Below are positions 6,565 through 32,536 of a stretch of DNA of 32,536 nucleotides, in pieces; the first letter of the stretch is position 1; each line of letters starts with the position of its first letter. The stretch is taken from assembly GCA_964418495.1 (NCBI GenBank), contig CAYQLQ010000003.1, forward strand, positions 1 through 32,536, given 5' to 3'. A program made the position numbers and the translations under genes. Below the pieces are notes generated by a model. That model did no database searches. It saw only the letters and a list, made by a program, of their open reading frames with translations, and was not told the DNA's origin. Source of the DNA: Candidatus Woesearchaeota archaeon. GTDB lineage: Archaea > Nanobdellota > Nanobdellia > Pacearchaeales > GW2011-AR1.

Positions 6565-6570
6565 ACTAAG

Positions 6571-7184: not shown

Positions 7185-7191
7185 GTTAAAA

Positions 7192-7204: not shown

Positions 7205-7217
7205 ATTGATTGAGGGA

Positions 7218-7544: not shown

Positions 7545-7553
7545 TTAAACTTT

Positions 7554-7787: not shown

Positions 7788-7847
7788 GATTCTTCTAAAG
7801 ATATATTCTTTAAAAAGTTATCTTTTAAGATTTGAATAAAATTAATA

Positions 7848-8624
7848 TTAATGCCTTTTCTTAAATTCCTCGCACATATAATTATATTCGCACCAGTTGC
7901 AGAGTGCTGATGTGCAGGCGGGGAATTCGGTGGTGTTTTCGATTTTTTTGATTAGTTTTATTGTTTCTTTTTTGAGTTGCGCGAGTTGTTCGTTGGTTCG
8001 GCTCGAGCAGATTTTGGCGTCGTGGGCGAGGTAGTGCCAGATGAGGCAGACTTTTTTGTCGTTGCCGAAAATTTCTTTTATTGCGATTGAGTAGAGCGCG
8101 AGTTGGCGGTCGGCTTCTATTTTTTCTTTTGTTGGAAGAGAGTTGGAGGTTTTGTAATCGTGGATTTCATATTCTCCGGTTTCTGGATTATATGCGAGCC
8201 GGTCGATGAAACCTTGGATTTTGTGCTCGCCTTTTTCGTCGAGGTTTATTAGGATTTGTTTTTCTGTTTCAAGTGTGTTGTCTTCGAACGGCGAGTGGCG
8301 GTTGCAGTAGTCGACGAGGAATTTGATTCCTTTGTTAAAATAATCTTTAGGTGTTGTGTTGTTCCGGACGATTTTTATTTCAGGGAAAAATTCCTGTTCC
8401 CACGCAGCGATGTAAGCGGTTAAAACTTCGTCTGTTGAGGGAATTTTTCCTGCTTTGGAGTTGAGATTATTGTAGAGCCATTCGAGAGCAGAATGAACGC
8501 AGTTTCCGAGGAGCGCTTCGATGGTCGTGTCTATTTCAGGAATTATTTTATCAATGTATTTGAGTTTGAATTTGAATGGACATTGTTCGAAAGTCGATAA
8601 TCGCGAGTGTGAGTAGGTTCCCAT
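7848..8624 (-). CDS. Cas4-like PD-(D/E)XK nuclease with Fe-S cysteine set (stand-alone)
   Basis: N-terminal CPFKFKLKYI, then GFIDRL, EIHDYKTS (D-x-K), QLALY (Q-x3-Y) and a C-terminal C-x2-C-x5-C (CNWCEYNYMC). A TATA box (TTTTATAAAG, minus strand) lies about 24 nt upstream of the ATG. Confidence 0.8.
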   Translation of the reverse strand: MGTYSHSRLSTFEQCPFKFKLKYIDKIIPEIDTTIEALLGNCVHSALEWLYNNLNSKAGKIPSTDEVLTAYIAAWEQEFFPEIKIVRNNTTPKDYFNKGIKFLVDYCNRHSPFEDNTLETEKQILINLDEKGEHKIQGFIDRLAYNPETGEYEIHDYKTSNSLPTKEKIEADRQLALYSIAIKEIFGNDKKVCLIWHYLAHDAKICSSRTNEQLAQLKKETIKLIKKIENTTEFPACTSALCNWCEYNYMCEEFKKRH

Positions 8625-9834: not shown

Positions 9835-11034
9835 TTAAATAATTTCGCCCCAACCGATTAGTCGCCAGTGTTGTGCGATGTTTCTTGCGATTCCGACGTT
9901 GGCTCCCGGGAGCGCGACGATTGGAATGTTAAGAGATAGTTCTACTTCGTCGCCGGAGATTTTTTCGATTGTTCCGACGGTGATTGTTGTGTTTACGCTT
10001 AGCATCAGCATTTCTTTTCCTTTTAGCGGCGCGACTGCATCGTGAGTTTCGGTTCCAAGAACTTCTTTGAATAATTTTGTTTTTAGTTTTAGAGACTCTG
10101 TTATTTCTGGTAGGTTTCCTTTTATTGAAAGAAGACATCCTGTGAGCGAGTCGGCTTTTGTCAGCGTCGGGTCGAGTTCGGTTTCAATAGATATGCTCGC
10201 GCCGGGATGAATTTCGTTGACTTGTTCTTTTCCGCGATGAAGCGCTACGATTTTTGTTGTTAATGTTTGGTAAGTTTGTTGATTGTTTTTCTTTATATTT
10301 AATCCGGGCTTGATTTCTATTTCGTCGCCGATTTTTAGTTTTCCGGATTTCAAAATTCCGCCGAGGATTCCGCCGTGTAGGGAGTTTATCTCTGTTCCAG
10401 GACGATTGACGTCGAAACTTCGTGCGATTAGGAAACAGGGTTTTGCGTTTTCGTCTTTTTTTGGAATCTCGAGTTTGGAAAGTTCTTCGACGATTTTGTT
10501 TATATTGATTCCCTGTTGCGCTGAAATTGGAATTATCGGCGCGTTTTCAGCGAGTGTTCCTTTGAGGAATTTTTTAATTTCTTCGGCGTTTTTTTTCGCT
10601 TGTTCTTTTGTTACTAAATCTATTTTGTTTTGGACTACGATTATATTTTTTATTCCTTTTGCCTGAAGCGCCATGAAGTGTTCGCGTGTTTGTGGTTTGA
10701 TTCCTTCATTCGCCGCGACGAGAAGAATTGCAGCGTCGATAATTGCGGCACCTGAAAGCATTGTCGCCATTAGCATCTCGTGCCCCGGCGCGTCGATAAA
10801 ACTTATGTAGCGGATTGGTTCGCATTTTGCGTTCTTGTCTTTTGAATTTGTTATTTCATTTCCGCATTTGTAAATTGTCATGTCGGCGTAGCCGAGTTTG
10901 ATGGTGATTCCTCGTTTGAGTTCTTCAGAATGCGTGTCTGTGAATTTTCCAGTCAGCCGGCTGAGAAGCGTGGTTTTTCCGTGGTCGATGTGCCCGACAA
11001 CTCCGACGTTAAGTTCTGGTATTTGTTTTGTCAT
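9835..11034 (-). CDS. eif2g: Translation initiation factor aIF-2 gamma subunit
   Basis: GHIDHGKTTL, DAPGHE, NKID. 399 aa, with the archaeal gene neighbourhood of S6e and aIF5B. Confidence 0.95.
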   Translation of the reverse strand: MTKQIPELNVGVVGHIDHGKTTLLSRLTGKFTDTHSEELKRGITIKLGYADMTIYKCGNEITNSKDKNAKCEPIRYISFIDAPGHEMLMATMLSGAAIIDAAILLVAANEGIKPQTREHFMALQAKGIKNIIVVQNKIDLVTKEQAKKNAEEIKKFLKGTLAENAPIIPISAQQGININKIVEELSKLEIPKKDENAKPCFLIARSFDVNRPGTEINSLHGGILGGILKSGKLKIGDEIEIKPGLNIKKNNQQTYQTLTTKIVALHRGKEQVNEIHPGASISIETELDPTLTKADSLTGCLLSIKGNLPEITESLKLKTKLFKEVLGTETHDAVAPLKGKEMLMLSVNTTITVGTIEKISGDEVELSLNIPIVALPGANVGIARNIAQHWRLIGWGEII

Positions 11035-11084
11035 ATAAATTATAGAATCAAGGGGATTAAAAGCGTTTTGGTTTACTCGGATTA

Positions 11085-11531
11085 TTATTTCTTTTCTTCG
11101 GGTTCAGCAGGTTTTTCTTTTGGTTGGTTTTGCTCTGGGAAAATTTCTGCGAGTTTTTTCGCGCCGTCTTTTAGAACTTTCAGATTGATTTGAATAATCG
11201 CAGGCGAGATAACTTTTCCCCGAACTGTTTTTCTTAATCGCAATCCTGCGGGTTTTCGGTTGATTTTTTTAAGTCCTTTTGGACGCATGTGCATTGCTTT
11301 TCCATAAGGCAGGAGAATTTTTTTAAGCGCGATTCCGTCGACGTTTTCCATTGCTGTGAAGCCAGCTTTGTCTGATGCTCCGGCGATTTCAAATTCGTAG
11401 CCGTCGAGTTCTGGCGCGACGATTTTTCCGGCGATTTTGTCGTGGAGTTCTCTACCAATAATTTCCTCTGCTTCTGCTTCCAGCTTGTAGGTTTTTCCGT
11501 CTTTGGTTGATAGATTAAATTTGAAAGGCAT
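11085..11531 (-). CDS. rps6e: 30S ribosomal protein S6e
   Basis: MPFKFNLSTKDGKTYKLE ... GFTAMENVDG ... RLRKTVRG. The C-terminus has a Lys/Glu/Pro-rich tail. Confidence 0.9.
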   Translation of the reverse strand: MPFKFNLSTKDGKTYKLEAEAEEIIGRELHDKIAGKIVAPELDGYEFEIAGASDKAGFTAMENVDGIALKKILLPYGKAMHMRPKGLKKINRKPAGLRLRKTVRGKVISPAIIQINLKVLKDGAKKLAEIFPEQNQPKEKPAEPEEKK

Positions 11532-11570: not shown

Positions 11571-13331
11571 TCAAATACCCCATTCGTCTTTATCTTTGCG
11601 TTTGATTTCTGCGATTTCTTGGAGAGTTTTTATTTCAGATTGTGAAAGAAGGTCTTTGTTTTTTTTGAATGTTTTGAACTGACTTTCGCCGAGGTCGGAA
11701 TAGAGGAATTGTTTGTCAGCGAGTTGGCGTTCGAAATTTACGCCGGGAATTGACAGTGCGACTTCGGTTCCTTCTTTTGCTTCGTCGACGGATTTTTTAT
11801 CTGCTTGAATATTTTTTGTTCTTCCGACTTTTATTCCGTTGTTGTCAATGAGGTTTAGTCCGGAGGTTAATTTTCCTCCTTCGATTTTTACTCCGAATAT
11901 TGCGGGGTTTGAATTTCGGAAAACATATTGCGGGAGGATTTTCAGTTTGCAAATTGTCGTTAGTTGCATCAGCCTGTGCTTTTCGATTTCTTTTGCTTTT
12001 TCAGTTCTGAATTTCTCAAGGTTTTCTATTAGTTTGTAAATCACTTCGTCGGTGAGGATTTTTATTTTTTCTGAGGTGTTTAATTCTTTTGCGTCCTCCT
12101 CAAGTTCGACATTGAATCCGACGACAATTGCGTCGAGCTCGTTCATTTCGAGATTTGCTTTTGCAGAAATTATGTCGGTTTTGCTGATGTTTCCGATTCC
12201 GGCTTTTACAACAGGGACGTTTGCCTGTCTCAAAAGGACGAGCAGAGCCTCGAGACTTCCGAGCGAATCGGCTTTTGTGATGATTCCTTTTTTGTCGGTT
12301 TGGATATTTTCAGTTACTTCTTTTTTGAATATCTGTTCTATTTCTTCTTCATTGTTTTTGTAAATTACGAACGGCATTCCGGAAAGGATTTCGTTTTTTT
12401 CTGTGAGTTGCATTCGGAGTCCTGTCGACGCTGTGACTTTTTCTTTTGCTTTGAATTTTGCGCAGAGCGGGAGGATTTCTTCGAGGATTCTTATTTTTGT
12501 GATAATTGGTTTTCCGTCGAAAGATGCGATTGCGAGTTCGTCGGTTTTTGCGAGTTCGCCGTCGTAGAGAATCGCCTCGGCGTAATTATTGGACTTGTCT
12601 TTTTTCACTTCGAGGATTACGCCTTTTGCGTCTTTGCCGAGTTTGAGTTTTTCAGATAAATATTTTTGGCTCAAACCGCAGAGCATCATTATGAGTTCGG
12701 GGATTCCTTGTTTTGTTTTTGCGGAAGTTGGGATTAACGCGATTGATTTTGTGAAGTCGTCGATGTTCCAGTAGAGGTCGGCGTTGAAACCGAAGCTGTT
12801 TAGGGAGCCGGTGAGTGTCATATATCGTTCGTCGAATATTTGTTTTATTGAGTTTGGTTGGGATTCGATTGATTCTTTTAGGGAAATTTTTTCTGTATTG
12901 TTTGGGGATCTCCACCCTGAGATGTTGTCGATTTTGTTCAGCGCGATTAGGAAAGGTGTTTTGTTTAGTTTTAGGATTTTTATTACTTCGGCGGTTTGTG
13001 GTTTGATGCCTTCGTTTATGTCGATGACGAGAACTGCTAAATCAGCGAGGGAGCCACCGCGTTTTCGTAGGTTTGTGAAGGCGGCGTGACCGGGCGTGTC
13101 AATTAGAAGAAAGCCGGGAATGTTGAGGTTTATTCCGGAACTTTCAATCAGAGGACAGGCTTTTTTGAGTTGTTCAATTGGATAAAGCGTGAAAGAAATT
13201 TTCTGCGTGATACCTCCGGCTTCTTTTTCCTGGACACAGCTACTTCGAAGACAATCGAGTATGCTCGTCTTTCCGTGGTCCACGTGCCCGCAAACCGTCA
13301 CGATTGGCTGGCGGATTAATTTTTCTGTCAT
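11571..13331 (-). CDS. infB: Translation initiation factor aIF5B (IF-2 homologue)
   Basis: VCGHVDHGKTSILD, DTPGHAAF, NKID. 586 aa. A TATA box (CTTTAAAAAT) lies about 22 nt upstream. Confidence 0.95.
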   Translation of the reverse strand: MTEKLIRQPIVTVCGHVDHGKTSILDCLRSSCVQEKEAGGITQKISFTLYPIEQLKKACPLIESSGINLNIPGFLLIDTPGHAAFTNLRKRGGSLADLAVLVIDINEGIKPQTAEVIKILKLNKTPFLIALNKIDNISGWRSPNNTEKISLKESIESQPNSIKQIFDERYMTLTGSLNSFGFNADLYWNIDDFTKSIALIPTSAKTKQGIPELIMMLCGLSQKYLSEKLKLGKDAKGVILEVKKDKSNNYAEAILYDGELAKTDELAIASFDGKPIITKIRILEEILPLCAKFKAKEKVTASTGLRMQLTEKNEILSGMPFVIYKNNEEEIEQIFKKEVTENIQTDKKGIITKADSLGSLEALLVLLRQANVPVVKAGIGNISKTDIISAKANLEMNELDAIVVGFNVELEEDAKELNTSEKIKILTDEVIYKLIENLEKFRTEKAKEIEKHRLMQLTTICKLKILPQYVFRNSNPAIFGVKIEGGKLTSGLNLIDNNGIKVGRTKNIQADKKSVDEAKEGTEVALSIPGVNFERQLADKQFLYSDLGESQFKTFKKNKDLLSQSEIKTLQEIAEIKRKDKDEWGI

Positions 13332-13406
13332 TACATTTAGAGAACTAAGGGATTTTTAAAGATTGGGAATGAGAAGATTTTTATAGTTCCTTTTTGATTT
13401 GGGCTG

Positions 13407-13727
13407 ATGAGAGAAATAATTAAAATAAGTGGACATTGTCCAGAGATGGTTCGAGGAGGGCGTTTCCCTTTAGAAGAAATTTTAAGTGTTCTACATCTAA
13501 GGTTGTTAAAGGGCAAACCAGAACCAGATACTTCTTGTGGGATAGTCAAGGGAATAAGACATGCGTTTTGGAGGAGGGATAAATATTCTTTAGAAACAAC
13601 TGGAGAAAATGTTGACCTTCAGTTTCTGAGTCGAGAAGGGGGAATTGTTTATCTTCAACTTCCTTCAGGATATGGGTTTGGAAGGGAGCTTATGGAATCT
13701 GAACCTTGTGCGTCTGTGGAAGATTAA
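13407..13727 (+). CDS. Hypothetical protein (orphan)
   Basis: 106-aa ORF. GATTTTTATAG TATA-like element lies about 23 nt upstream (leaderless spacing). No recognisable motifs. Confidence 0.4.
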   Translation: MREIIKISGHCPEMVRGGRFPLEEILSVLHLRLLKGKPEPDTSCGIVKGIRHAFWRRDKYSLETTGENVDLQFLSREGGIVYLQLPSGYGFGRELMESEPCASVED

Positions 13728-13735
13728 ATATTTTT

Positions 13736-14083
13736 TCAGTTCCATTGATATGCTTCGACGATTTTCGTGAGTGTTGTGACAGCATCAGTGAGTTGAGATT
13801 CGCGTTCGTTGTGTTTTTCTGCTTCGGGAACAATTATTAGGTGATATTTTTGTGTGATGTCTGCTGGGTCTGGATCTTTAATTTTGAAGTCTACTTTGGC
13901 AAGTTGAAATTTTTGTTGGAGGTAGGTTAAGAATTTTCTGGCGTCGCGCGGGCGGGTTGCTGGAAGTTCAAATTGAATTCCTGCGTTGTCTTCGTGAAGA
14001 ACGCACCTTGAACCTGTCGTTCGAAATAAATTCGTTTCGAAGAATAAATCTTTCAGAGCAGAAACTCTGTCGTTAAGTTCCAT
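13736..14083 (-). CDS. Hypothetical protein
   Basis: 115-aa ORF with no recognisable motifs. Confidence 0.45.
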   Translation of the reverse strand: MELNDRVSALKDLFFETNLFRTTGSRCVLHEDNAGIQFELPATRPRDARKFLTYLQQKFQLAKVDFKIKDPDPADITQKYHLIIVPEAEKHNERESQLTDAVTTLTKIVEAYQWN

Positions 14084-14124
14084 GGAATAATTAAGTTTTT
14101 AATCTATATATCTTTTATGGTTCT

Positions 14125-14409
14125 ATGAAATTGTTGAAAGATTTGGAAAAGAATTATGATTTGGAGCTGGCGCGCGTGGAAAGGGAAATCCGAAAGCAGA
14201 AGGCGCGGTTTGTTTTGTTGCAGTTTCCCGACGGGTTGAAACCTTATGCAACTGCGGTTGTGGATTTTCTTGAGAAAAAACTGAAAGGCGTGAAGTTTGC
14301 GATTTGGCTTGGCGATTGTTTCGGCGCATGTGACACTCCTGTTGGAATTGAGAAACTGAATTTTGATTTGGTTGTGCAGTTCGGACACAACGAGATGATG
14401 CCTATTTGA
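14125..14409 (+). pseudogene. dph2: N-terminal fragment of diphthamide synthase Dph2 (about the first 90 of about 330 residues)
   Basis: KARFVLLQFPDGLKPYA ... DCFGACDTPVGIEKLNFDLVVQFGHNEM matches the Dph2 N-terminal domain through the GH motif. The ORF then stops and overlaps the 3' end of an opposite-strand gene. Confidence 0.65.
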
Positions 14410-14848
14410 AAAGTTTTTCTATTTCCTGATTGATTCTTTTTCTTTGGTAGATGTCAGAGAGTTTGTAAATTACGAGATAGCAGATTGCGGAAATTGTGGT
14501 TGCGAGAATGAAATTGCCGACGAGGAAACTTCGTGTGTAGAAGAAAAGATTTCCGAGAACTGTGAAGTCGACGGTTTGAGTTGTTTTAAGAACTAGGTTT
14601 CCGAGTTTGAAACTGAGAAGGTAGAGCGGCGCGAGGGCGAAAATGTTCCAGACTGCGAACGACGCGAGCATTGAGATTTTGCTTGCGCTTTTTATGACAA
14701 GAAGAACGAGCAGTCCGATGAAAACTCCCAAGCCGAAAGTCGGGAGGATTGCGATGAGAGTTCCGAGGGAAAAACCGAGCGCGATTGAGTGAGGCGAGGT
14801 TTTTAATTTTAAAATTTCTTCAAAATGTTTTAGTATTTGCTTTAGCAT
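14402..14848 (-). CDS. DUF2062-like membrane protein
   Basis: LKTSPHSIALGFSLGTLIAILPTFGLGVFIG followed by further TM helices. Confidence 0.6.
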   Translation of the reverse strand: MLKQILKHFEEILKLKTSPHSIALGFSLGTLIAILPTFGLGVFIGLLVLLVIKSASKISMLASFAVWNIFALAPLYLLSFKLGNLVLKTTQTVDFTVLGNLFFYTRSFLVGNFILATTISAICYLVIYKLSDIYQRKRINQEIEKLFK

Positions 14849-14915
14849 TTCTTTTTGAGAAAAGTAACATTTAAATATTCTTTTGTCGTCGGAATAATGT
14901 AAAGGAGGTGATAAA

Positions 14916-15299
14916 ATGACGCCGATAGAAATTATAGCATTAATTCTTGCTGTAGTTGTTGCTGTGAAACTTTTGGTTATAATGATTAAGCCGAAAGCGT
15001 GGATGAATGTTGTGGAGGTGGTTTATAGAAAGCCGACTTTGCTGATGGTGGTTTCGTTGATTCTTGCTGCGGTTGTTCTCTATTATCTGGATTTTGCAGG
15101 AATAACAATTGTGCAGATTTTTGCAGTGATGGTTTTCTTTGCTCTACTTGCTGCGATGACAGCTTCTGCGTATGCGAAGGAAATTATTGTGCTTGCGAGA
15201 AAAATGCTAAAGGACAAAAGTGTTTTGAAAAAAGCGTGGCTTGCGTTGGTGGTTTGGATTGTGCTGGTAGTCTGGGTGCTTTACACTTTGTTCGCTTAG
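14916..15299 (+). CDS. Four-TM membrane protein, hypothetical
   Basis: A strong GGAGGTG Shine-Dalgarno (14904..14910) lies 5 nt before the ATG. The protein is hydrophobic throughout. Confidence 0.6.
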   Translation: MTPIEIIALILAVVVAVKLLVIMIKPKAWMNVVEVVYRKPTLLMVVSLILAAVVLYYLDFAGITIVQIFAVMVFFALLAAMTASAYAKEIIVLARKMLKDKSVLKKAWLALVVWIVLVVWVLYTLFA

Positions 15300-15369
15300 A
15301 ATAATTTATTTTTATTTTATTATTTATTATCTTCATAATCTTTATATAGTTGGGGGGTTAGGTTAGGGG

Positions 15370-15771
15370 ATGGGCGATTATGAAGTGCGGAGGGCAGTTA
15401 CTGAGGTGAGAAATCGTCTTGCGAAATATTTTGGTTCTGAAGAGGAAGCGGAAGAAGCGTCGGGAGAATTGGAAAAGATTTGCGCGAGGGATGGCTGTAT
15501 AAAGCCTGTTCCGAAGGGAAAGAAAAAATATTGTTCTTCTGAATGTGCGAAGTATATGAATCGTCGGTGGGCGGCGGCGCGTTCTCGGGAAAGATACCTT
15601 GCTGCGGCAGCGTCGGTAAGACGTGCTAAAACTGGTTTGAGAGCATGCTTGAGTTGTGCTAGAAGTTTTTTATCTGAAGGTCCTTGGAATAGAATTTGTC
15701 CCCAATGTGCAGAGAGAAACGATCTGATTTCTTCAAGAGCAGAGGAATCCACAAAAGATTATTCTCCATGA
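15370..15771 (+). CDS. Cys-rich zinc-finger protein (DUF2116-like C-x4-C ... YCS-x2-C plus C-x2-C ... C-x2-C)
   Basis: CARDGCIKPVPKGKKKYCSSEC and CLSCARSF...NRICPQC. The segment is visibly more G+C-rich than its flanks. Confidence 0.55.
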   Translation: MGDYEVRRAVTEVRNRLAKYFGSEEEAEEASGELEKICARDGCIKPVPKGKKKYCSSECAKYMNRRWAAARSRERYLAAAASVRRAKTGLRACLSCARSFLSEGPWNRICPQCAERNDLISSRAEESTKDYSP

Positions 15772-16476
15772 TTACAACCAACCTGCTAAGAGGGCGAGAC
15801 CGACGAGGAATAGAAGTGCGCCGGCGATGAGGTGAAGCCATCGGATGTTTCTGTCTTTCCAACCTGAGACATCTTGGACGCGGGAGAATCCTAAGTAAAC
15901 AATTAGAACAATCGCGAGCATGGGAATTATGAAAATTAAATTGTAGTAAAGGAGCCACGGTAGGGCGGCAAGTGTGCCGAGTTCGGCGAGAATTCCTGAC
16001 GCGATTATGTAAGGTCCGATTGTGCATGGAAGAAGGAAAAGCGTGACGAGGAAACCGATTATGAATGCGCCGGTAGGGGAAGTTATTTTTTGAATTATTC
16101 TTTTTACTCTTGGACGAAGGAAGAGAGGCATTTCTGTTGCGAGTCCGCCTTTTTGGTAGGAGAAGAAATCTTTGACGTTCAATCCGCCGAGAATCATCGC
16201 GAGAATCGCGAGTCCTTTGTAAACTATTCCGGAGTTTGTTCGTAGGAATTCAGCGAAGGTTCGGAAGAATTGAATTATTATAATTCCGTAGAAAAGATAG
16301 CCGACGTAAATTGACGTTGTGAATGCGAGTCCGGCGTAGAGAACTTTTTTTCTTTTGTCTGGGTTTTGAATTAGAATTGCGACGAGCACCATTGTTAGGA
16401 CGGCGATGGCGCAGGGGTTTACTGAATCTGCGAGCGCGAGGGCGGTGATTCTTGTTAGATTAATTATGTCTGTCAT
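15772..16476 (-). CDS. CcdA/DsbD-family thiol:disulfide electron-transfer membrane protein
   Basis: ALADSVNPCAIAVL and LLPCTIGPY, the two conserved membrane-embedded Cys motifs. Six or more TM helices. Confidence 0.8.
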   Translation of the reverse strand: MTDIINLTRITALALADSVNPCAIAVLTMVLVAILIQNPDKRKKVLYAGLAFTTSIYVGYLFYGIIIIQFFRTFAEFLRTNSGIVYKGLAILAMILGGLNVKDFFSYQKGGLATEMPLFLRPRVKRIIQKITSPTGAFIIGFLVTLFLLPCTIGPYIIASGILAELGTLAALPWLLYYNLIFIIPMLAIVLIVYLGFSRVQDVSGWKDRNIRWLHLIAGALLFLVGLALLAGWL

Positions 16477-16481
16477 TTTTA

Positions 16482-16817
16482 TTATGGGCAGTTGGTAAGT
16501 TCTTTTAGTTTTTCAATTGATTGAACTCCGATATATTCTTGATTATTGATAATCCATGTTGGGGTATATGTTATTTCTGCGCATTTTTCTCTTTCAAAAA
16601 AGCAATCGACGATTGTTAGATACTGAGTTGTTTCGCCGAAAAGATTTTCTTGAATTTCGCAGGCGTGGCATCCGAGCTGGACATACAGAATCGAGTTCTC
16701 GCCGATGCATTGCGCGGTTTTTTTCGAAATCGCCGGTTCAGGATTTCGGAGAACAATTATTGCGGGAACAATCACAGCGAGGATAATTCCAACTGTCCAC
16801 CAACTTTTTTTATTCAT
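16482..16817 (-). CDS. Membrane-anchored thioredoxin-fold protein (VKOR-associated Trx-like type)
   Basis: N-terminal TM helix, CHAC active site followed by EIQENLFG, VDC, and a cis-Pro motif YTPTWIIN. It closely parallels the Trx-like domain of bacterial VKOR fusions. Confidence 0.7.
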   Translation of the reverse strand: MNKKSWWTVGIILAVIVPAIIVLRNPEPAISKKTAQCIGENSILYVQLGCHACEIQENLFGETTQYLTIVDCFFEREKCAEITYTPTWIINNQEYIGVQSIEKLKELTNCP

Positions 16818-25280: not shown

Positions 25281-25327
25281 CCGAAAGTGTTATAAACAAT
25301 TATTCTGTCAATAAACTAACATAATCC

Positions 25328-25360
25328 CAGGTGATCCGCAAGGGTTGCCTGATGTTTTTT
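25328..25360 (+). terminator. Hairpin with GCAA tetraloop followed by T6
   Basis: CAGGTGATCC-GCAA-GGGTTGCCTG forms 10 bp including 3 G-U pairs, followed by ATG and TTTTTT. It lies 48 nt after the stop at 25280. Confidence 0.4.
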
Positions 25361-25558
25361 AAAGGGGTATCTACAATTGTATTTATTGATGGGGGTTATC
25401 TTTCTTTTATTTACAGATAAGAAAAGAAAATCCGGGCTTTCATTATCTAATCCTCTTTGGAAGGCTTGTAAGGATAAAATTAAAATAAGAAGAGAATATT
25501 TCTCATAAGATTTATGTAGGGCAAAACTTTAAAAATCATTTTCTAATCTTTGTATTGT

Positions 25559-25571
25559 GCCTACGTGGTCT
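25559..25571 (+). repeat. 13-nt duplicate of the 5' end of tRNA-Asp
   Basis: GCCTACGTGGTCT is identical to 25614..25626. A CTTTAAAAAT TATA-like element lies about 25 nt upstream of this copy. Confidence 0.8.
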
Positions 25572-25613
25572 TTCCTGACGTGAGGATGGAAACGTACTAC
25601 GAAAAGCAAGCAA

Positions 25614-25685
25614 GCCTACGTGGTCTAACGGCTATGACGCGTCCCTGTCGCGGACGCAACCCGAGTTCGACTCTCGGCGTGGGCG
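25614..25685 (+). tRNA. tRNA-Asp (anticodon GUC)
   Basis: Hand-folded cloverleaf. The 7-bp acceptor stem is GCCUACG/CGUGGGC. The anticodon stem CGUCC/GGACG carries loop CU-GUC-GC. The T arm is CCGAG-UUCGACU-CUCGG. The discriminator is G and no CCA is encoded. Confidence 0.9.
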
Positions 25686-25688
25686 TAT
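25674..25688 (+). repeat. att core at the tRNA-Asp 3' end (attL)
   Basis: TCGGCGTGGGCGTAT: 14 nt recur at 29010..29023 and 13 nt at 30605..30617. Confidence 0.75.
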
Positions 25689-25771
25689 GCCCTTTCGGGC
25701 ACATTGAAGAGCGTCAGAAATGTTGTGAATTTGTCCATCTTCTTTTTAAAAAAGGAGGATCTAATTAGAAT

Positions 25772-26926
25772 ATGAAAATAGATCCTTACAAACATAAGGA
25801 GAGATATCTTTCTTGGAAAAATTCGGTTAAAGCCGAAGGTCTTGGAATTTCTAAAGAGAATTCTAAACTTTTTTTTGAATATTTATTTGATATGGAACAA
25901 GGAATAAATGTTGCTAGCGGAAGTAAAAAAGGAGCTAGAAGCTATGTTCGATTGAATAATCTAAAACAAAGAATCCTTTTTTTAATAAAGGTTTTTGAAG
26001 AAAGATATAATCTAAAAGATATTACCAAGGTAGGTGAGAGAGAGTTGCATGATCTTTTTGCGGGGATGAGAAATGGGACTATAAAACGACAAGACGGTAA
26101 GCAGTATAAATCTCCTTCTGACTATGTCAAGATTTTCAAGGCCTTTTGGCACTGGCATCAGAAAGTTAATAGGAAAAAGGGAATCACAATTTACGATATT
26201 ACAATGGATTTAGATATTAGTGGAGAAAAACCTAAATGGGTTTATTTAGACGAAGGACAGATTAAGAAACTGTGTGATAATTCTATTTATGATTATCGTG
26301 TTTTGATAATGTTCTTATTTGATACGGGCATAAGAGCTCCAACCGAATTACTTAATATTAAAGTCTCTGACTTCTATAAAAACTTTAAAGAGTTAAATAT
26401 TCGAGAAGAGATTTCAAAGACCTTCGGTCGGAGAATCAAACTTATGCTTTGTTCTGATTTAATAAGGGAGTATGTTAAATCTAAGAGTCTTAACGCAGAA
26501 GATTATGTCTTTACAAAAACTCCTCCGGTGATGAACAAATATCTTAAGAGACTTTCTGGAAAATTGTTTGGGGAGAAAGAGAGTCAGGGAGGAGAAAAGT
26601 ATTCTAATTTGACACTGTATGATTTCAGGCATTGTAGTTGTTGTTATTGGTTGCCTCGCTATAAATCTGAGTCCGCTTTGAAATTTCGGTTTGGTTGGAA
26701 GAAGTCAGATAAGATTCATTATTACTCAGAAATGTTGGGCATGAGTGATACAATCAGTGAAGAGGATTTACTTCTTGATGTTACTAAGACTGAGATTGAA
26801 AAACAACTATCAAATTCAAGGAATGAAAATGGTATTTTGAAAGAGAGAATGGGAATGATGGAGCAACAAATGAAGAAGATTTTGCAGATGGTTAATGGGG
26901 CTTGTTTTGTTGTTCAGGATAGATGA
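25772..26926 (+). CDS. Tyrosine recombinase / phage-type integrase
   Basis: FDTGIRAPTELLNIKVSDF (box I Arg), LYDFRHCSCCYW (H/R box) and KIHYY (candidate Tyr). AGGAGGA Shine-Dalgarno lies 12 nt upstream. The gene sits directly 3' of a tRNA. Confidence 0.8.
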   Translation: MKIDPYKHKERYLSWKNSVKAEGLGISKENSKLFFEYLFDMEQGINVASGSKKGARSYVRLNNLKQRILFLIKVFEERYNLKDITKVGERELHDLFAGMRNGTIKRQDGKQYKSPSDYVKIFKAFWHWHQKVNRKKGITIYDITMDLDISGEKPKWVYLDEGQIKKLCDNSIYDYRVLIMFLFDTGIRAPTELLNIKVSDFYKNFKELNIREEISKTFGRRIKLMLCSDLIREYVKSKSLNAEDYVFTKTPPVMNKYLKRLSGKLFGEKESQGGEKYSNLTLYDFRHCSCCYWLPRYKSESALKFRFGWKKSDKIHYYSEMLGMSDTISEEDLLLDVTKTEIEKQLSNSRNENGILKERMGMMEQQMKKILQMVNGACFVVQDR

Positions 26927-28021
26927 TTAATCTATTTTTCTTATTACTTGTTTATTGAAATCTGGGGCTTTTAAGTCATTTAATTCAACTTCCCTCTCTT
27001 TTAGTAGTTCTTCATTTGATTTTAAAAATTCTTCTAGAACAATGAGGTAGTTTGACTCCAATTCGTTTTTTTCACTTAACTTTTTCATTGCTAAAAAAAC
27101 ATCTAAGCAAGTTCTGTTAAACAAATCTCCTTTAGAAAACCGCTCTATAGTTTGCATAGACCAATAATCTACGTTTCCCTTAAATAAGAAATAATCAAAA
27201 CAAAAATTAAGAAATGAGTCCATCATATTACTCTCTTCTTCAAAAACATTGTATTTGAAATATTCTAAACCCAACCCCAAATTCACACTTCCGATCATTC
27301 GGGCTATACAAGCATAACATCTGCCACAATTTATCCCCCATCTTCCACTTATGCACGAATGGGTTACTGCAAGAATGGAGTCGTTAGCTAGGTGTTTCAT
27401 CATCTCAGTTTTAGTGAAGTCTTCAAAGGGGGTAATGATTTCTATTTCCCTATCAAGAATTATCTCCCCAATATTTTTAGCATAACTTAGCACATAAGGA
27501 TTGGTGGTGTATGTAATTGTATCCATTGGTGCAAATTTTGGCTGATACATTGTTGATCCACATTCAGAAATTATAATTCTCTTAGATTTACAGAAATATC
27601 CTAATATTGTCGCATAAAGCACATAAAGAAAGCCTCTTAGTTGAGAGTATCCTTTACCCATTGCGGGAGCAATCATTTTGATAACTGCAATCTCTAAAGG
27701 ATTTAATAATTTTTCTGTCAAATCGTTCACTTTTTTTGTGATTTTTCCCAAGTCGCCATGAGAAACATAGAGCCCTAAAATTGAATCATAATTTTCAGCT
27801 GATTTAAGAATACCCATTGTGCTATCTATCCCTCCAGAAAAAAGGCAAATAGTTTCATAAGCTTCAAAACCAAAGTTTAGTCTAGTTTTCTTTCCTATTT
27901 TCTTAACAAATTTGAAACTAATTTTTTCACATAAAACATCTAAAACCAACTTTTCTAAAAAGAAAGTTATATTCTGGATCTTTTCTTCATTTAAATCCAT
28001 AAAATAAGAGATTTCAACCAT
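26927..28021 (-). CDS. QueC-like PP-loop ATPase with extra N- and C-terminal regions
   Basis: PP-loop FSGGIDST. LRGFLYVLYATILGYF...IIISECG. Exact QueC zinc motif C-x8-C-x2-C-x2-C (SCISGRWGINCGRCYAC). It is 364 aa against about 220-230 for canonical QueC (alternative start at 28000). Confidence 0.7.
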   Translation of the reverse strand: MVEISYFMDLNEEKIQNITFFLEKLVLDVLCEKISFKFVKKIGKKTRLNFGFEAYETICLFSGGIDSTMGILKSAENYDSILGLYVSHGDLGKITKKVNDLTEKLLNPLEIAVIKMIAPAMGKGYSQLRGFLYVLYATILGYFCKSKRIIISECGSTMYQPKFAPMDTITYTTNPYVLSYAKNIGEIILDREIEIITPFEDFTKTEMMKHLANDSILAVTHSCISGRWGINCGRCYACIARMIGSVNLGLGLEYFKYNVFEEESNMMDSFLNFCFDYFLFKGNVDYWSMQTIERFSKGDLFNRTCLDVFLAMKKLSEKNELESNYLIVLEEFLKSNEELLKEREVELNDLKAPDFNKQVIRKID

Positions 28022-28137
28022 TTCACAACGGACATCTTAAGGCGGTCAATTTACTAAAAGAAATTTCGGAGAAAGTTTTAATTTGTCTTGGAAGCCCAAG
28101 ATCTTCCTTAGCTTTTACACTGGAAGAAAGAAAACAA

Positions 28138-28449
28138 ATGGTCTTTGAAAATACACACATAGAACCGATCATAGTACAGGATTTAGATAGCAATCATCCA
28201 CTTTATGAAGATTGGGGAAGATATGTTTTAGATATTACTGGCCAAATATCGCTTCTAGCAACAAGAAATGATACGGTAAGGGGAGATTTTATTAGACATG
28301 GTATTCCCATTTTGTGGCTACCTAGATATGAAAACATTAAAGGGAGTTCAATCAGAGACAAAATTACTACTGGAGATGAGCTCTGGAAAGAATTAGTCTC
28401 GGCAGAAACTTTAAAAATAATTGAAAACTCTAATTTCTATAAAAAATGA
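28138..28449 (+). CDS. NMN adenylyltransferase-like nucleotidyltransferase, C-terminal part; homology continues upstream to 28003 without a start codon
   Basis: GSSIRDKITTGDELWKELVSAETLKIIENS resembles the archaeal NMNAT SxTxxR region. Upstream, in frame, is NKRFQPFHNGHLKAVNLL (the HxGH motif), with no ATG/GTG/TTG between the stop at 28000..28002 and 28138. Confidence 0.6.
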   Translation: MVFENTHIEPIIVQDLDSNHPLYEDWGRYVLDITGQISLLATRNDTVRGDFIRHGIPILWLPRYENIKGSSIRDKITTGDELWKELVSAETLKIIENSNFYKK

Positions 28450-28904
28450 AACAAAAAATTCTAACATTTATTTATAGTAAGAAAAACAACAAATTCCTCG
28501 CACTAAGAAATAACCCCCATCCAGACCATGGAGGAGATTTCTGGTTCGTCGTAACTGGTGGACTTGAGGGAGAAGAAACACATAAAGAAGCAGCCAGAAG
28601 AGAAGTAAAAGAAGAAACGAATTTAGATATGATAGAGATATTAAATTTAAATTGGAGCTCAATCTACGAGTGGAATAATGAATTATGTAGAGAAATAAAT
28701 TTCCTGGGATTTGCAGAAGATCCTGAAGATATAAGATTAGATCAAGAGGAAGTCATCGAACATAAATGGCTCAATTTGGACGAATTTATAAATTTGATTA
28801 ACTGGCAAGACGATAAGGGAATCTTAAAAAAGGTTTTAGAAAAGGCGATAAAAAATAGGCTGCATTTTCAAGAAGACAATATTATTGATTATAGGAGAAA
28901 ATAG
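28446..28904 (+). CDS. Nudix hydrolase
   Basis: Nudix box GGLEGEETHKEAARREVKEETNL. An ATGA overlap links it to the upstream gene. Confidence 0.85.
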   Translation: MKQKILTFIYSKKNNKFLALRNNPHPDHGGDFWFVVTGGLEGEETHKEAARREVKEETNLDMIEILNLNWSSIYEWNNELCREINFLGFAEDPEDIRLDQEEVIEHKWLNLDEFINLINWQDDKGILKKVLEKAIKNRLHFQEDNIIDYRRK

Positions 28905-29009
28905 AAGGTTTAAACTATTCGAGGCTTCTGCACCCGTTAAGTAGTCGCTCCATTTTAAAAAGCTTAAAGATTTTAAAGAATTAAGAGCGTTACGGGTATT
29001 AGTGTCCTT

Positions 29010-29023
29010 ACGGCGTGGGCGTA
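29010..29023 (+). repeat. att core copy 2 (attR of unit 1 / attL of unit 2)
   Basis: CGGCGTGGGCGTAT is identical to 25675..25688. Confidence 0.7.
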
Positions 29024-29177
29024 TTTTTTATCGACGGTAAAAATTCTTAGGAAATTTGGGAGTCGAAAAGCCCACTAATTTGGACAAAAAGTTCCACGCT
29101 CTGACCGAAATCTGGATAAAATGTTTAAAAGGGGGGACACGAAATTTTATAAATCCCTCTCTATTGTTATTTATATA

Positions 29178-30380
29178 ATGAGCAAAAAAATACTTTTAAT
29201 TTCCCTATTAATTATCTTGTTATTTGGAAGTATTATTACTTATGCTGTCGTAAATAAAGTTGTTTTCTATAGGGAAAAACAAGAGCCTTCAGATAATTTA
29301 GCTGATTACTATATCCAAAAAGCAAGACTAAATAGTAATTTTGGATTTTATCAAGAAGCTATAGAAAATTATGAGTTCGCTGAAAATCAAGAAGGATTTG
29401 AATCTTATTCTAAAATTGTACAACAAGAAAAAACTAATGTTAATCTAAGTTTGCAAAACAATGTTTCAGCTAAATTAGATGATTTAAAAGTTTATTATGA
29501 AGACATGGGAGATATAGAATTTAGCATAGGAAACTATGAGGAAGCTATAACAAATTATCAAGAAGCATTAAACTATGTTAAATTTGAGGAGGATAAAAAC
29601 AGAATTAATCTTAGAATATCAAAAAGTTATGACTTAGAAGAAAATTATGAAAAAAGTGCAGAAAATTATATATTGATGATAAATAATGCAGAAGAAGCTT
29701 GGTTAAGATATCGGCTTGCTAGAGAATTTTGGGAAGTTGTGCAGGAAGATAATAAAGTTAATGAGAATTTAGAAAAATTTGAAAAACAATTAGCTGAAAA
29801 TCAAGAAGATAAAACTGCTATGAATCTCCTTTTGTTTTATTATAATGTTATGGATTTTAATGAAAACCAAGCAACTAGTTTATGTAACCAACTTTTGGTC
29901 TATGATCCTGAAGATAAAGTCTTATTATATACTTTAGCAGAGATTTATAATAAAGGAGGAAAATATGACAAAGCTAAAGATGTTTATTTAAAATTAATCC
30001 AAATTGATCCTGAAGATAGCGAGAACTATTATTCTCATTTAGTTGATAATTATTATTTGTCAGGAAACTATGAAGAGGCTATAACATGGCAGAAAGATTT
30101 GATTTCAAACCTAGGAGAAAAAGAAAATTATTATTTTAAGTTAGCTGCAATATATAAAGAATCTGGAAATTATCCCATGGCAGAAGAAACATTTGAAAAT
30201 ATGTACTCTCTTGCATTAACTTCTTATAAAAAATATCAGGCTAAACAAAATATTGCAGAAATGTATGTTGAAATTGGAGATAAAGAGAAGGCAATAAAGA
30301 TATATCAAGATTTAGCTGAAAATTCTGAATCACAGGAATTAAGAGCGATTGCTTCTTCAAGAATAAGAGAAATTGATTAA
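29178..30380 (+). CDS. Membrane-anchored TPR-repeat protein
   Basis: The ATG at 29178 lies 24 nt after TTTATAAA (29146..29153), so the track start at 29121 is unlikely. It has an N-terminal TM helix and repeated xGNYEEAIxxYxxAL TPR units. Confidence 0.75.
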   Translation: MSKKILLISLLIILLFGSIITYAVVNKVVFYREKQEPSDNLADYYIQKARLNSNFGFYQEAIENYEFAENQEGFESYSKIVQQEKTNVNLSLQNNVSAKLDDLKVYYEDMGDIEFSIGNYEEAITNYQEALNYVKFEEDKNRINLRISKSYDLEENYEKSAENYILMINNAEEAWLRYRLAREFWEVVQEDNKVNENLEKFEKQLAENQEDKTAMNLLLFYYNVMDFNENQATSLCNQLLVYDPEDKVLLYTLAEIYNKGGKYDKAKDVYLKLIQIDPEDSENYYSHLVDNYYLSGNYEEAITWQKDLISNLGEKENYYFKLAAIYKESGNYPMAEETFENMYSLALTSYKKYQAKQNIAEMYVEIGDKEKAIKIYQDLAENSESQELRAIASSRIREID

Positions 30381-30402
30381 CTTCTATTCTCGAGAATAAA
30401 GC

Positions 30403-30412
30403 ATTTATAAAT
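30403..30412 (+). promoter_or_regulatory. TATA box ATTTATAAAT with ATGGAAA 26 nt downstream
   Basis: Same promoter style as elsewhere in the window. A 42-codon ORF (30439..30567) follows. Confidence 0.35.
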
Positions 30413-30500
30413 CTGTTAAAAGATAGGTTTAAACAATTATGGAAACAAGCAAAAAAATAATTTATAGATACGGGATTTTCTGTCACCCATTTGTAGTCGA

Positions 30501-30513
30501 CAAGATTTATAAA
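30501..30513 (+). promoter_or_regulatory. Promoter CAAGATTTATAAA directed across att core copy 3
   Basis: It matches the 24471/24938 promoter core. The ATG at 30539 lies 25 nt downstream. Confidence 0.45.
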
Positions 30514-30604
30514 TCATTTCCATCACAAGACAACAACGATGGAAAAAACAATAAAATTAAAGAATAAGGCGATTCCCATTGATTGTGCCACGATGGGTTA
30601 TTGT

Positions 30605-30617
30605 TCGGCGTGGGCGT
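30605..30617 (+). repeat. att core copy 3
   Basis: TCGGCGTGGGCGT is identical to 25674..25686. Confidence 0.65.
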
Positions 30618-30800
30618 TGAAGGAAACCAAGATTTCCTCTCACACTCCTTCCTTCCTGTTCAGATGTGCAATTTCTAACCGCTCGAGCCCACACTCGCTT
30701 TCGGTTTGTGATGCGAGGCTTGTGTAAACTCTCGACCTCCAGTGAAATCGCGTGCGGAAAGTGGGTGTTTTTTCTATGTTTTATAACCAAAAACCTTAAA

Positions 30801-30829
30801 TATGGTAAAAATACCATAATACTATGGTA
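30801..30829. promoter_or_regulatory. Candidate operator: TATGGTA-aaaa-TACCATA palindrome plus a third TATGGTA half-site over the start codon
   Basis: The perfect 7-bp inverted arms are at 30801..30818. The direct copy at 30823..30829 contains the ATG at 30824. Confidence 0.5.
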
Positions 30830-31441
30830 AAACACAAGAAAGATAAATCCGCACTAAAACCCAAGGAAAAGCTGATAAAAAATCTAATTGAAGATAAAGA
30901 GCCACGCTCAATTTTATCTCTTTCAAGTTCAGCAGTTGTAGATTACAAAAACACATATAATTTAGTTAATCAACTTCAGGCAAGCGGAGCAATAGTGAAA
31001 GAAGTTACAGGCAATACTAATTTTATAAAATTGAACCTTTCTCCAAATCAGGAAATTTATTCTGTTGAAAACAAAAGAACCAAAGAGTTTTTATCTAAAA
31101 ATCCAAAACTAAAATTAATTCAGGAGGATATTGAAGAAATCGGATATCCTTTTACAATTGTTCTGATATTCGGCTCCTATGTAAAAAAAACCAATATTTC
31201 CTCCTCAGATATGGATCTCTGCATAATTTCTGATAATAAAGAAAAAACAAAAAAGTTGATTCAATTATTAAACCGAAGTTCTTTAAAACTTGAAATTCAA
31301 GAATTCACAACCGATGAATTTATCTCTATGATAGAAAAAACACAAAATAACCTTGGGCACGAAATAGTTAAAAACAATATTCTTCTTTACGGAATAGAAA
31401 ACTATTACAATCTTATTTCAAAATGGATGAAAAAAGAATAA
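30824..31441 (+). CDS. wHTH plus minimal nucleotidyltransferase (MNT-type antitoxin)
   Basis: IVLIFGSYVKKTNISSSDMDLCIIS is the GS-x(n)-D-x-D Pol-beta NTase motif. The N-terminal approximately 90 aa look like a wHTH. The gene overlaps the HEPN gene by 19 nt. Confidence 0.8.
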   Translation: MVKHKKDKSALKPKEKLIKNLIEDKEPRSILSLSSSAVVDYKNTYNLVNQLQASGAIVKEVTGNTNFIKLNLSPNQEIYSVENKRTKEFLSKNPKLKLIQEDIEEIGYPFTIVLIFGSYVKKTNISSSDMDLCIISDNKEKTKKLIQLLNRSSLKLEIQEFTTDEFISMIEKTQNNLGHEIVKNNILLYGIENYYNLISKWMKKE

Positions 31442-31776
31442 AACAGGCAGAAAGTAATTTTAGAAATTATCTGAACGATGGCAAAATAAAAAAGACCAAG
31501 AAAGTTGACAAGATTATTTATGAAACCTATTTGAGAAATGCCAAAGAAAGATTGAATGTAGCGAATCAACTATTTGAAAACAAAACGTCCTCTCTATGGG
31601 TCGTTGTATCAAGTTATTATTCTATGTTTTACATAGCATGTGCATATCTCTATAAATTGGGTTACAAACCTGGAAGCGAGATTGTTCATCAAGTTGTGAA
31701 TATTAGTTCTATAAATTCTTTTGCTCTGCTCAATGAAGTCCTGGCCTTGTTTTCTTTTATTTCTTCTGTGGTTTGA
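31423..31776 (+). CDS. HEPN-domain protein gene, 3' half displaced by an inversion (as written it is truncated after residue 94 plus a 23-aa tail)
   Basis: The N-terminal half reads ...SSYYSMFYIACAYLYKLGYKPGSEIVHQVVNI. The remainder is found on the opposite strand at 31928..31705. Confidence 0.7.
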   Translation: MDEKRIKQAESNFRNYLNDGKIKKTKKVDKIIYETYLRNAKERLNVANQLFENKTSSLWVVVSSYYSMFYIACAYLYKLGYKPGSEIVHQVVNISSINSFALLNEVLALFSFISSVV

Positions 31777-31928
31777 TACTGAAAGCTTGCTCTTTTTGCT
31801 TTTTCTCTTTCATAATCTTCTAAATAATTATCAACAATTATTAATGCTTTTTCTTTTTCTTCATTGTAGTTTTCTAAAAGATGATTTTTGATTTTATTTC
31901 TTCCCTGAACAATTAAAGACTCAAGGGA
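31705..31928 (-). other. Inverted 224-bp segment encoding the HEPN C-terminal half
   Basis: Flanked by AATATT at 31699..31704 and 31929..31934. The minus-strand reading is SLESLIVQGRNKIKNHLLENYNEEKEKALIIVDNYLEDYEREKAKRASFQYQTTEEIKENKARTSLSRAKEFIEL, which contains no Met. Confidence 0.7.
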
Positions 31929-32066
31929 AATATTACAAAATGAAACTAACTGAATCTGAACTTGAAGAACACGCTGGGAGCGAGTGTTCGGGGTGTTGGC
32001 GGGTGTTAGGACGTGGACGTTTGGGGATATAGAAAGAATTAAAATACTAAGATTTCTTAAGATAAT

Positions 32067-32536
32067 ATGGCAACCTATTCGCATTCGCGAGTCTCGACTT
32101 ATGAAAATTGTCCTTATCAATATAAATTAAGATATATAGACAGGGTTCAGGTTGATGTTCCGACGACGATTGAGGCGTTTATGGGGGATATGGTGCATCA
32201 GACATTGGAGCACTTGTATAAATTAAAGGCGTTTAAGAAACGGGTAGCGCTGAATGTTTTGGTTAAATTTTATAGGGATTTGTGGGAGAAGAGTTATTCT
32301 GCGGATATTCTGATTGTTAAGGCTGAGAAGGAGAATGTAACTGCGAATAATTATAAGAAAATGGGGGAGAACTTTATTACTCATTATTATGAACGGATGA
32401 AACCTTTTGACCAGTTGACTATTTTGGGATTGGAGACGCAGGATAGAATGACTCTGCCTGATGGGAATCAATGGCATGTCCGGATAGATAAACTTGCTTG
32501 CGATGATGAAGGGAATTATTATGTTTGTGATTACAA
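32067..32536 (+). CDS. Second Cas4-like PD-(D/E)XK nuclease, 3'-truncated by the window end (absent from the ORF track)
   Basis: ATG at 32067, open to the window end. MATYSHSRVSTYENCPYQYKLRYIDRV...TTIEAFMGDMVHQTLEHLY ... VRIDKLACDDEGNYYVCDY parallels the protein of 7848..8624. Confidence 0.8.
   Translation, partial: MATYSHSRVSTYENCPYQYKLRYIDRVQVDVPTTIEAFMGDMVHQTLEHLYKLKAFKKRVALNVLVKFYRDLWEKSYSADILIVKAEKENVTANNYKKMGENFITHYYERMKPFDQLTILGLETQDRMTLPDGNQWHVRIDKLACDDEGNYYVCDY

Follow-up and report, generated by a model that had tools for sequence, protein, structure and literature searches.

Three copies of the 3' end of a tRNA-Asp gene lie in the 32,536-nt stretch of DNA analysed here (the window), the first of them at the end of the gene itself and beside a gene for a tyrosine recombinase (integrase), and they raise the question as to whether the DNA that they enclose is one integrated element, a stack of separable elements, or no element at all. 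We think it likely that the DNA at 25687–30604 is mobile DNA inserted in the 3' end of tRNA-Asp by the recombinase encoded at 25772–26926, that at least two events contributed, and that the middle copy is a worn junction; the mechanism would be the classical one in which a site-specific recombinase targets a tRNA gene and elements accrete there in tandem. The initial annotation had proposed a stacked array of tRNA-targeting attachment (att) sites, and this part stands on observed features: a tRNA-linked integrase family, conserved site arms, arrays in relatives, variable cargo and a drop in G+C. Its division of the array into two units with three working sites is not supported, the family's canonical arms being confined to the outer pair of copies (25674–25686 and 30605–30617).

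The tRNA-Asp(GTC) gene is the only tRNA gene found in the window by ARAGORN and Rfam. The word TCGGCGTGGGCGT from its 3' end occurs exactly at 25674–25686 and 30605–30617 (copies 1 and 3), and the overlapping word CGGCGTGGGCGTAT at 25675–25688 and 29011–29024 (copies 1 and 2), all on the plus strand and in direct orientation. Exact matching thus bears out the earlier report of three direct copies and of a 14-nt match at the second, although the position then given for the latter (29010..29023) was 1 nt off. No further copy with 0 or 1 mismatch is present on either strand of the 32.5-kb window. For a 14-mer pattern allowing up to 2 mismatches 0.02 chance matches are expected, and none of 100 dinucleotide-preserving shuffles yields three. 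Copies 2 and 3 are unchanged in an independent assembly (L104, 99.8% identical over 28469–31453; L-numbers denote fetched loci or contigs that were compared with the window), and the junction of tRNA and int is reproduced at 100% in L088, an assembly from another sample. The int gene begins with an ATG at 25772, 86 nt past the tRNA end, and so within the 90 nt previously noted.

The flanks of the outer two copies identify them as partners. We constructed profiles without the window for an integrase-side arm (P', from 17 other loci) and a far-end arm (P, from L001, L005, L010 and L100); the former matches the window at 25672–25774 (E=8e-14) and the latter at 30497–30617 (E=2e-13). Because profiles built from outside recognise a P' arm beside the tRNA copy and a P arm beside copy 3, we read 25674–30617, on sequence grounds, as a matched attL/attR pair around 4.9 kb of low-G+C DNA. 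To the left of copy 3, blastn also gives 77% identity over 121 nt with the DNA left of the second core of L001 (17713–17824). The P' arm comprises a hairpin directly after the tRNA, an inverted-repeat half GGGCACATTGAAGAGCGTCA (25697–25716) and, next in order and ahead of int, a TATA-like box and GGAGG, and the 86 nt between core and int start are conserved across loci. The P arm contains a promoter module resembling a TFB recognition element and TATA box (BRE/TATA; 30498–30513), directed at the core, and an inverted-repeat half GATTCCCATTGATTGTGCCA (30571–30590) that ends exactly 15 nt before CGG. The half-sites are mirror-image and bipartite, with GATTCyCA-N4-5-TGTGCCA on the left and kGGCACA-N4-5-GAGnnTCA about 10 nt past the core on the right, and complete arm-core-arm junctions of the attP type are present in L001, L005 and four times in L010, with the same GTGCCA–15 nt–core spacing. 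The block of identity consists of the last T-stem bases, the acceptor strand, the discriminator and 1–2 nt more, and is similarly placed at a tRNA-Gln (L050) and a tRNA-Gly (L074). Two further readings of the P arm were rejected: its promoter module is not an element-specific motif, as the same BRE/TATA consensus precedes ordinary host genes (element specificity is confined to the sequence beyond the module), and a small open reading frame (ORF) running from this promoter across the core does not keep its frame among the window, L001 and L100, so the arm is conserved at the DNA level.

The integrase belongs to a large family. Its match to PF00589 (26.3 bits, E=7e-6) is just under the 27.1-bit cut-off, although it matches two integrase families in PHROGs (phrog_1, 2e-13; phrog_216, 1e-9), its closest solved structure is archaeal XerA (5hxy, E=3e-5), and many of its homologues carry a precomputed PF00589 match; no NCBIfam family is hit at E<=0.01, integron integrase models included. 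Residues R188, K216/K223, R286-H287, W309 and Y317/Y318 are invariant in 25 homologues, their catalytic roles being assigned by position alone, and the first His of the H-x-x-R motif is replaced by Tyr (Y283). There are 2,411 database relatives, of which the best 120 are 61–81% identical and nearly all 380–390 aa long, and 246 matches among the GTDB species genomes, as many as three copies standing on a single contig. Of 88 full-length copies in the fetched loci, surveyed by intron-aware tRNA detection, 53 follow a tRNA on the same strand at a distance of no more than 600 nt, in most cases 77–110 nt and typically about 85 nt; the tRNA is Asp in 26 of these 53, and the others include Glu, Gly, Gln, Ser, Leu, Arg and Tyr. 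The DNA that follows the integrase differs from locus to locus, as variable cargo. About 20 loci (e.g. L042, L047, L054 and L067) have another arrangement, in which the integrase ATG stands right behind a GTCAC-N6-8-GTGAC inverted repeat and a BRE/TATA module with no tRNA or core. In L097 (9975–10396), from another organism, an identical tRNA-Asp is followed at once by an unrelated integrase-like gene, and more than one integrase family seems to target this tRNA-Asp end.

The relatives also indicate what kind of element this may be. Over about 80 loci, a VirB4/TraC-like ATPase is encoded in 31, an N6/N4 DNA methyltransferase in 24 and a TrbL/VirB6-like membrane protein in 18, with TrbC homologues also among them, and by this gene content the full-size relatives look like integrative conjugative elements (ICEs). 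No conjugation genes (VirB4-type ATPase, coupling protein or relaxase, mating-pore genes) are present in 25687–30604 while the integrase relatives carry them, and the element in the window would therefore be a small, reduced derivative and not an ICE. A provirus or plasmid origin was rejected, as no relatives of the integrase were found in IMG/VR, GenBank phages (INPHARED) or PLSDB plasmids; PHROG structural genes are likewise absent from the element beyond a marginal partial match of its Nudix protein.

Comparison with syntenic genomes gives the signature of a hotspot. The order Na/H exchanger, 220-aa gene, seryl-tRNA synthetase (SerRS), tRNA-Asp is common to four genomes, with no shared gene downstream of the tRNA among them. 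An empty site or an excision junction was sought by looking up exact matches to two proteins, one encoded by the ORF left of the tRNA and one the nucleotidyltransferase right of copy 3, and through SerRS relatives. The latter are at most 77% identical, and three of the seven contexts examined (L001, L100 and L102) keep the tRNA-Asp synteny, all with repeats; the look-ups returned only short contigs in the window arrangement and one variant, L089. In L001, the closest relative (int 81% identical, same SerRS–tRNA-Asp synteny), int is followed by 7.9 kb, then by a P arm, core and P' arm with the first 70 int codons, and then by two further degenerate sites. This second set is 98.4% identical to the first copy, and such a near-identical partial int copy fits the expectation for tandem insertion followed by deletion. 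L100 has no integrase and three extra cores (10095–11290), the first with a canonical P arm, which bound a 79-aa ORF and a VapB/RelE-like toxin–antitoxin pair, and L102, also without an integrase, has one extra core 4.8 kb away (11644–16555). In L010 (54–575) the tRNA-Asp precedes four tandem arm-core-arm units of ~100 nt, whose core triplets differ (CAC, TGC, TTC and TGT), with the integrase after them. In about 700 kb of tRNA-linked loci, 12-nt tRNA-end repeats occur five times downstream of the tRNA, and not at all upstream or on the other strand. Neither of the two outcomes that had been named as telling against an array is thus seen: the repeat is no common word in these loci, and the relatives do not share one gene order.

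Where the strands cross over, in which order the events took place and whether the DNA is still mobile are matters of inference, along the following lines. A circular element would carry an attP of about 77 nt, comprising in order a 20-nt half GATTCyCA...TGTGCCA, 15 nt, a 12–13-nt core (T)CGGCGTGGGCGT, a spacer of about 10 nt, and the half kGGCACA...GAGnnTCA. The strands would be exchanged inside this core and the element thereby placed behind the tRNA, such that the element's copy of the core rebuilds the tRNA as attL, beside int, and the displaced host copy is carried to the far end as attR (30605–30617). At least two insertions would have piled up behind tRNA-Asp in this way, with 29011 as the decayed junction that separates a newer left part (int and the QueC-like, truncated NMNAT-like and Nudix genes; 32.8% G+C) from an older right part (the TPR gene; 28.0% G+C) that would have lost its integrase. 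With both canonical arms at the outer pair alone, the excision unit, if any, would be the whole 4.9 kb; its loss is predicted to leave an attB of GAGTTCGACTCTCGGCGTGGGCGT joined to TGAAGGAAACCAAG (i.e. ...GGCGTGGGCGT joined to TGAAGG), and its circle an attP junction of GTGCCACGATGGGTTATTGTTCGGCGTGGGCGT joined to ATGCCCTTTCGGGCACATTG. Circularisation would also set the P-arm promoter upstream of int.

The middle copy is the point at which other accounts diverge. Neither arm profile reaches beyond its 14-nt core, it lacks a GATTCyCA...GTGCCA half-site at the 15-nt spacing and a P' arm on its right, and blastn of 28905–29125 against about 100 loci returns nothing homologous to its flanks; copy 2 was thus rejected as a canonical att site. 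The patchy similarity (TAT-nnn-yTn-TCG) formerly noted to the right of copies 1 and 2 is not upheld, since the P'-arm profile matches the core alone at 29011. Just to the right of copy 2 is an inverted att-like relic (29034–29112, minus strand), in which a degenerate tRNA-Asp 3' end TCGGTCAGAGCGT is followed by a P'-type arm ACTTTTTGTCCAAATTAGTGGGC. The tRNA end of this relic resembles another tRNA-Asp variant (L076), and its arm (ACTTTTTGTCCAA...) is comparable to those of L029 and L072; local alignment to the L029 arm scores 33 (shuffles 16+/-2.3, with 0/500 reaching it), and the score to the L076 tRNA end and arm is reached by 1/500 shuffles. From these features copy 2 is best read as the decayed junction of a separate integration and not as a working boundary.

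If copy 2 were instead a working site, there would be two discrete and separable elements, unit 1 (25687–29010) an autonomous 3.3-kb element with copy 2 as its attR, and unit 2 (29025–30604) an integrase-less passenger mobilised in trans, like a satellite or a cis-mobilisable element (CIME). The junctions predicted are ...GGGCGTAT joined to TTTTTATCG, with CTCTCGGCGTGGGCGTAT joined to TTTTTATCGACGG upon loss of unit 1 and GTGTCCTTACGGCGTGGGCGT joined to TGAAGGAAACC upon loss of unit 2. The core at 29011 is indeed exact over 14 nt and so exceeds the copy 3 match by 1 nt, the G+C of the two parts is unequal (32.8% vs 28.0%), integrase-less units bounded by cores occur in L100 and L102, and core identity alone might suffice were the arms dispensable. 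By the family pattern, however, copy 2 has neither the conserved half-site at its spacing nor a P' arm on the right, and recombination of attL with copy 2, or of copy 2 with copy 3, would yield arm-deficient sites; it therefore seems unlikely that the two parts move separately. Tandem accretion and CIMEs are known beside ICEs of the ICESt1/ICESt3 type. That situation is similar in having an att array that bounds an integrase-bearing element and integrase-less neighbours, a composite of which could excise via the outer sites, but here the inner site has no arms, no excision products were seen, and the hosts and integrase families are unrelated.

A more distant alternative is an integron-like capture platform, in which a resident tRNA-linked recombinase would insert and shuffle small integrase-less cassettes that end in the tRNA-end core. 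It could account for the integrase-less units of 0.35–1.6 kb with one or two genes between cores (the TPR unit here and the units of L100), for the tandem ~100-nt complete inverted-repeat att units of L010 with nothing in between, and for an integrase that is unusually conserved (60–81% identity across thousands of copies). However, the integrase lies inside the first unit rather than outside the array and matches no NCBIfam family, integron integrases among them; an Rfam search of 25300–31000 finds the tRNA alone and no attC-type site; the full-size relatives carry conjugation genes and behave as self-contained elements; and the duplicated int remnant of L001 fits insertion of a whole element in tandem and subsequent deletion. 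We regard this platform as highly improbable. Integrons, including those of archaea (PMC9668308), are similar in their short and often single-gene units beside a tyrosine recombinase and in their imperfect inverted-repeat sites, and differ in that this locus has no IntI signature, no attC, a core that is a tRNA 3' end, an integrase within the first unit and relatives resembling conjugative elements. A broader proposal, speculative and at best a slim prospect, is that Pacearchaeota-type tRNA genes together with a conserved multi-copy recombinase form a standing hotspot of gene capture, stacking units down to the empty att units of ~100 nt in L010 and the single-gene and toxin–antitoxin units of L100. 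If true, this would be an integron-like system operating on a tRNA 3' end and not on attI/attC, and cassette formation rather than simple decay would account for the TPR unit and for the bare 29011 core.

That no integration took place, the repeats being a common genomic word or stray tRNA fragments from local duplication, is barely conceivable and already contradicted by the data: the cores are short (13–14 nt) and a 5' tRNA fragment also lies upstream (25559–25571), but three copies arose in none of the 100 shuffles, the copies are solely downstream and in direct orientation here and in related loci, and the 108 nt that lead up to copy 3 form an arm with homology to the ends of elements at other loci.

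Several points weigh against the favoured account of tRNA-targeted insertion and accretion. No empty tRNA-Asp site, the check that had been proposed at the outset, was found among the four syntenic genomes or in a JGI scan with the tRNA 3' 30-mer (which returned only this strain and another organism with an identical tRNA-Asp and a different integrase), and neither an attP circle junction nor a restored attB was found, the attP pattern being absent from IMG/VR; excision therefore stays hypothetical, and this may be a fixed element. The variant contig L089, about 99% identical in the left flank, parts from the window sequence about 110–170 nt before the tRNA gene, which it lacks at this position, and simple insertion at the tRNA 3' end does not account for this. 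The case for copy 2 as a junction consists of the exact 14-mer and the weak inverted relic, and G+C is low to the right of copy 3 also, so that the island may reach farther out than this copy. L089 and a k141 contig (L093) that stops exactly at 25686 are hints of population heterogeneity, neither of them decisive. The tail of L089 (1340–1866, compared with window 25443–25505) shares TTTATCCCCAAKGTTAA with the 3' flank of the L100 tRNA-Asp.

Table 1. Features at and around the proposed tRNA-Asp insertion in the window
Feature	Coordinates	Strand	Evidence
Additional exact copy of the tRNA-Asp 5' end (13 nt), GCCTACGTGGTCT	25559..25571	+	k-mer scan
tRNA-Asp (GTC), intact, putative integration target	25614..25685	+	ARAGORN; Rfam tRNA, 54.4 bits
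attL core (copy 1): last 12 nt of the tRNA and 1–3 nt	25674..25688	+	13 nt common to copy 3, 14 nt to copy 2
Integrase-side arm (P')	25687..25771	+	Profile from 17 loci outside the window; alignment with L001, L002 and L005
Tyrosine recombinase (integrase), 384 aa	25772..26926	+	PF00589; phrog_1; XerA 5hxy; 2,411 relatives
QueC-like PP-loop protein, 364 aa, cargo	26927..28021	-	PF06508, 1.3e-11
NMNAT-like ORF, no start codon	28003..28449	+	NF002243, 3e-16 (alignment begins at profile position 8)
Nudix hydrolase, 152 aa, cargo	28446..28904	+	PF00293, 1.7e-15
Middle core (copy 2), CGGCGTGGGCGTAT, without canonical arms	29011..29024	+	Exact match; no arm-profile extension
Inverted att-like relic	29034..29112	-	nhmmer, E=0.1; local alignments
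Tetratricopeptide-repeat (TPR) protein, N-terminal hydrophobic segment	29121..30380	+	Many TPR Pfam families; likelier start 29181
Far-end arm (P)	30497..30604	+	Profile; blastn; fixed-spacing pattern
attR core (copy 3), TCGGCGTGGGCGT, partner of attL	30605..30617	+	Exact match; arm profile; fixed-spacing pattern
158-nt patch, 48.7% G+C, ending in a T-run	30618..30775		Composition
Low-G+C DNA: MntA-like nucleotidyltransferase, disrupted HEPN gene, PD-(D/E)XK exonuclease	30824..32536		Domain searches; composition

The host genes of the window are archaeal (aIF2-gamma and aIF5B, with gyrase A and SerRS also upstream of the tRNA) and the named integrase homologues come from metagenome-assembled genomes of Pacearchaeota, Nanoarchaeota and Woesearchaeota, and on this basis we take the host to be a Pacearchaeota-like DPANN archaeon. 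G+C is 41–42% to the left of the tRNA and drops there, to 32.8% in 25687–29010 and 28.0% in 29025–30604, and then climbs in the short patch after copy 3. The gene content described earlier (int, QueC-like, NMNAT-like and Nudix, followed by TPR) is recovered by domain searches (Table 1), with the qualification that the NMNAT-like ORF lacks a start codon. It keeps the RFQPFHNGH motif, which begins 3 codons past a stop, it overlaps the start of the divergent QueC-like gene, and it is probably a 5'-truncated pseudogene; the pair of NMNAT and Nudix genes resembles the bifunctional NadM–Nudix arrangement. The QueC-like protein resembles QatC weakly, scoring 58.8 bits where the cut-off is 280. The TPR protein, the only one encoded in 29025–30604, is predicted from its hydrophobic segment to be membrane-anchored.

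The duplicated tRNA-Asp 5' end, GCCTACGTGGTCT, lies 55 nt upstream of the tRNA-Asp gene and behind a tRNA-type promoter; 25524–25571 is about 75% identical to the promoter and 5' end of a tRNA-Asp in L070, and this arrangement (25559–25571 with 25524–25613) is absent from the syntenic L001, L100 and L102. It may be the scar of an older event on the 5' side, and whether 25559–25571 is part of the island is uncertain. Farther left, at 6501–8000, a short stretch of low G+C (about 30% vs 41–42%) with four small ORFs may be a separate islet.

To the right of copy 3, the patch at 30618–30775 contains a long hairpin and was rejected as a non-coding RNA, with no Rfam match and fold z-scores (-1.5 and -1.4) that are not significant. 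It has a weak likeness to the flank of the tRNA-Gly repeat in L074 (score 24; shuffles 16+/-2.3, maximum 27) and is possibly the original host flank. From the end of this patch to the end of the window G+C is 32%. The HEPN (HepT-like) toxin gene in this part (31423–32120) is broken: three contigs from other samples (L106–L108) run from 30316 to 31701 and then into the reverse complement of 31923–31748, encoding an intact 173-aa HEPN protein, whereas in the window this 176-nt piece stands in inverted orientation within an ORF of the minus strand, past which the sequence differs. The exonuclease gene (32061–32536) runs past the window edge, and the presence of homologues (about 66–76% DNA identity) beside this integrase family in L007, L054 and L057 suggests that it is common cargo of the family. 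Because the right side has low G+C together with a toxin–antitoxin pair and an integrase-associated exonuclease, the array is probably not complete at 30617, and mobile or variable DNA probably continues to its right and past the window end.

Tyrosine integrases, including those of the P4 type, direct many bacterial genomic islands and ICEs to tRNA genes, and a class of such integrases with a 3'-end sublocation was reportedly distinguished by Williams in 2002. The locus is similar to these islands in that int lies beside an intact tRNA with a 3'-end repeat at the far boundary, the tRNA would be rebuilt, the cargo is variable and the G+C atypical. It differs in its DPANN host, in the sub-threshold Pfam match and lack of GenBank phage or PLSDB relatives of its integrase, in its short identity block (12–14 nt), and in an attP whose bipartite inverted repeat is long and has a fixed spacing. 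Archaeal integrases left whole by integration (pNOB8, SNJ2, and the Thermococcales and Methanococcales plasmid types; PMC8371274, and PMC5861418 for SNJ2) share the tRNA 3' target and the unsplit int; the solved structure nearest to the present integrase is XerA, at only E=3e-5. Tandem integration at one locus and integrase loss after integration have both been described in archaea (PMC8371274). In the SSV type attP lies inside int, which is split on integration, whereas here int is an intact ORF of 384 codons and the core lies 86 nt upstream.

A 2021 review of archaeal tyrosine recombinases (PMC8371274) mentions no DPANN, Nanoarchaeota or Pacearchaeota integrase, no description of this integrase family was found in the literature searched, and the family, its DPANN hosts and its att anatomy appear to be undescribed in these sources. 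Gene gain is poorly understood in DPANN archaea, whose genomes are very small and which are dependent on hosts. The locus points to a large, multi-copy integrase family that targets tRNA 3' ends, often together with conjugation-type genes, and its att anatomy, a 12–13-nt core with a bipartite inverted repeat at fixed spacing, is a direct means to map such islands in DPANN genomes.

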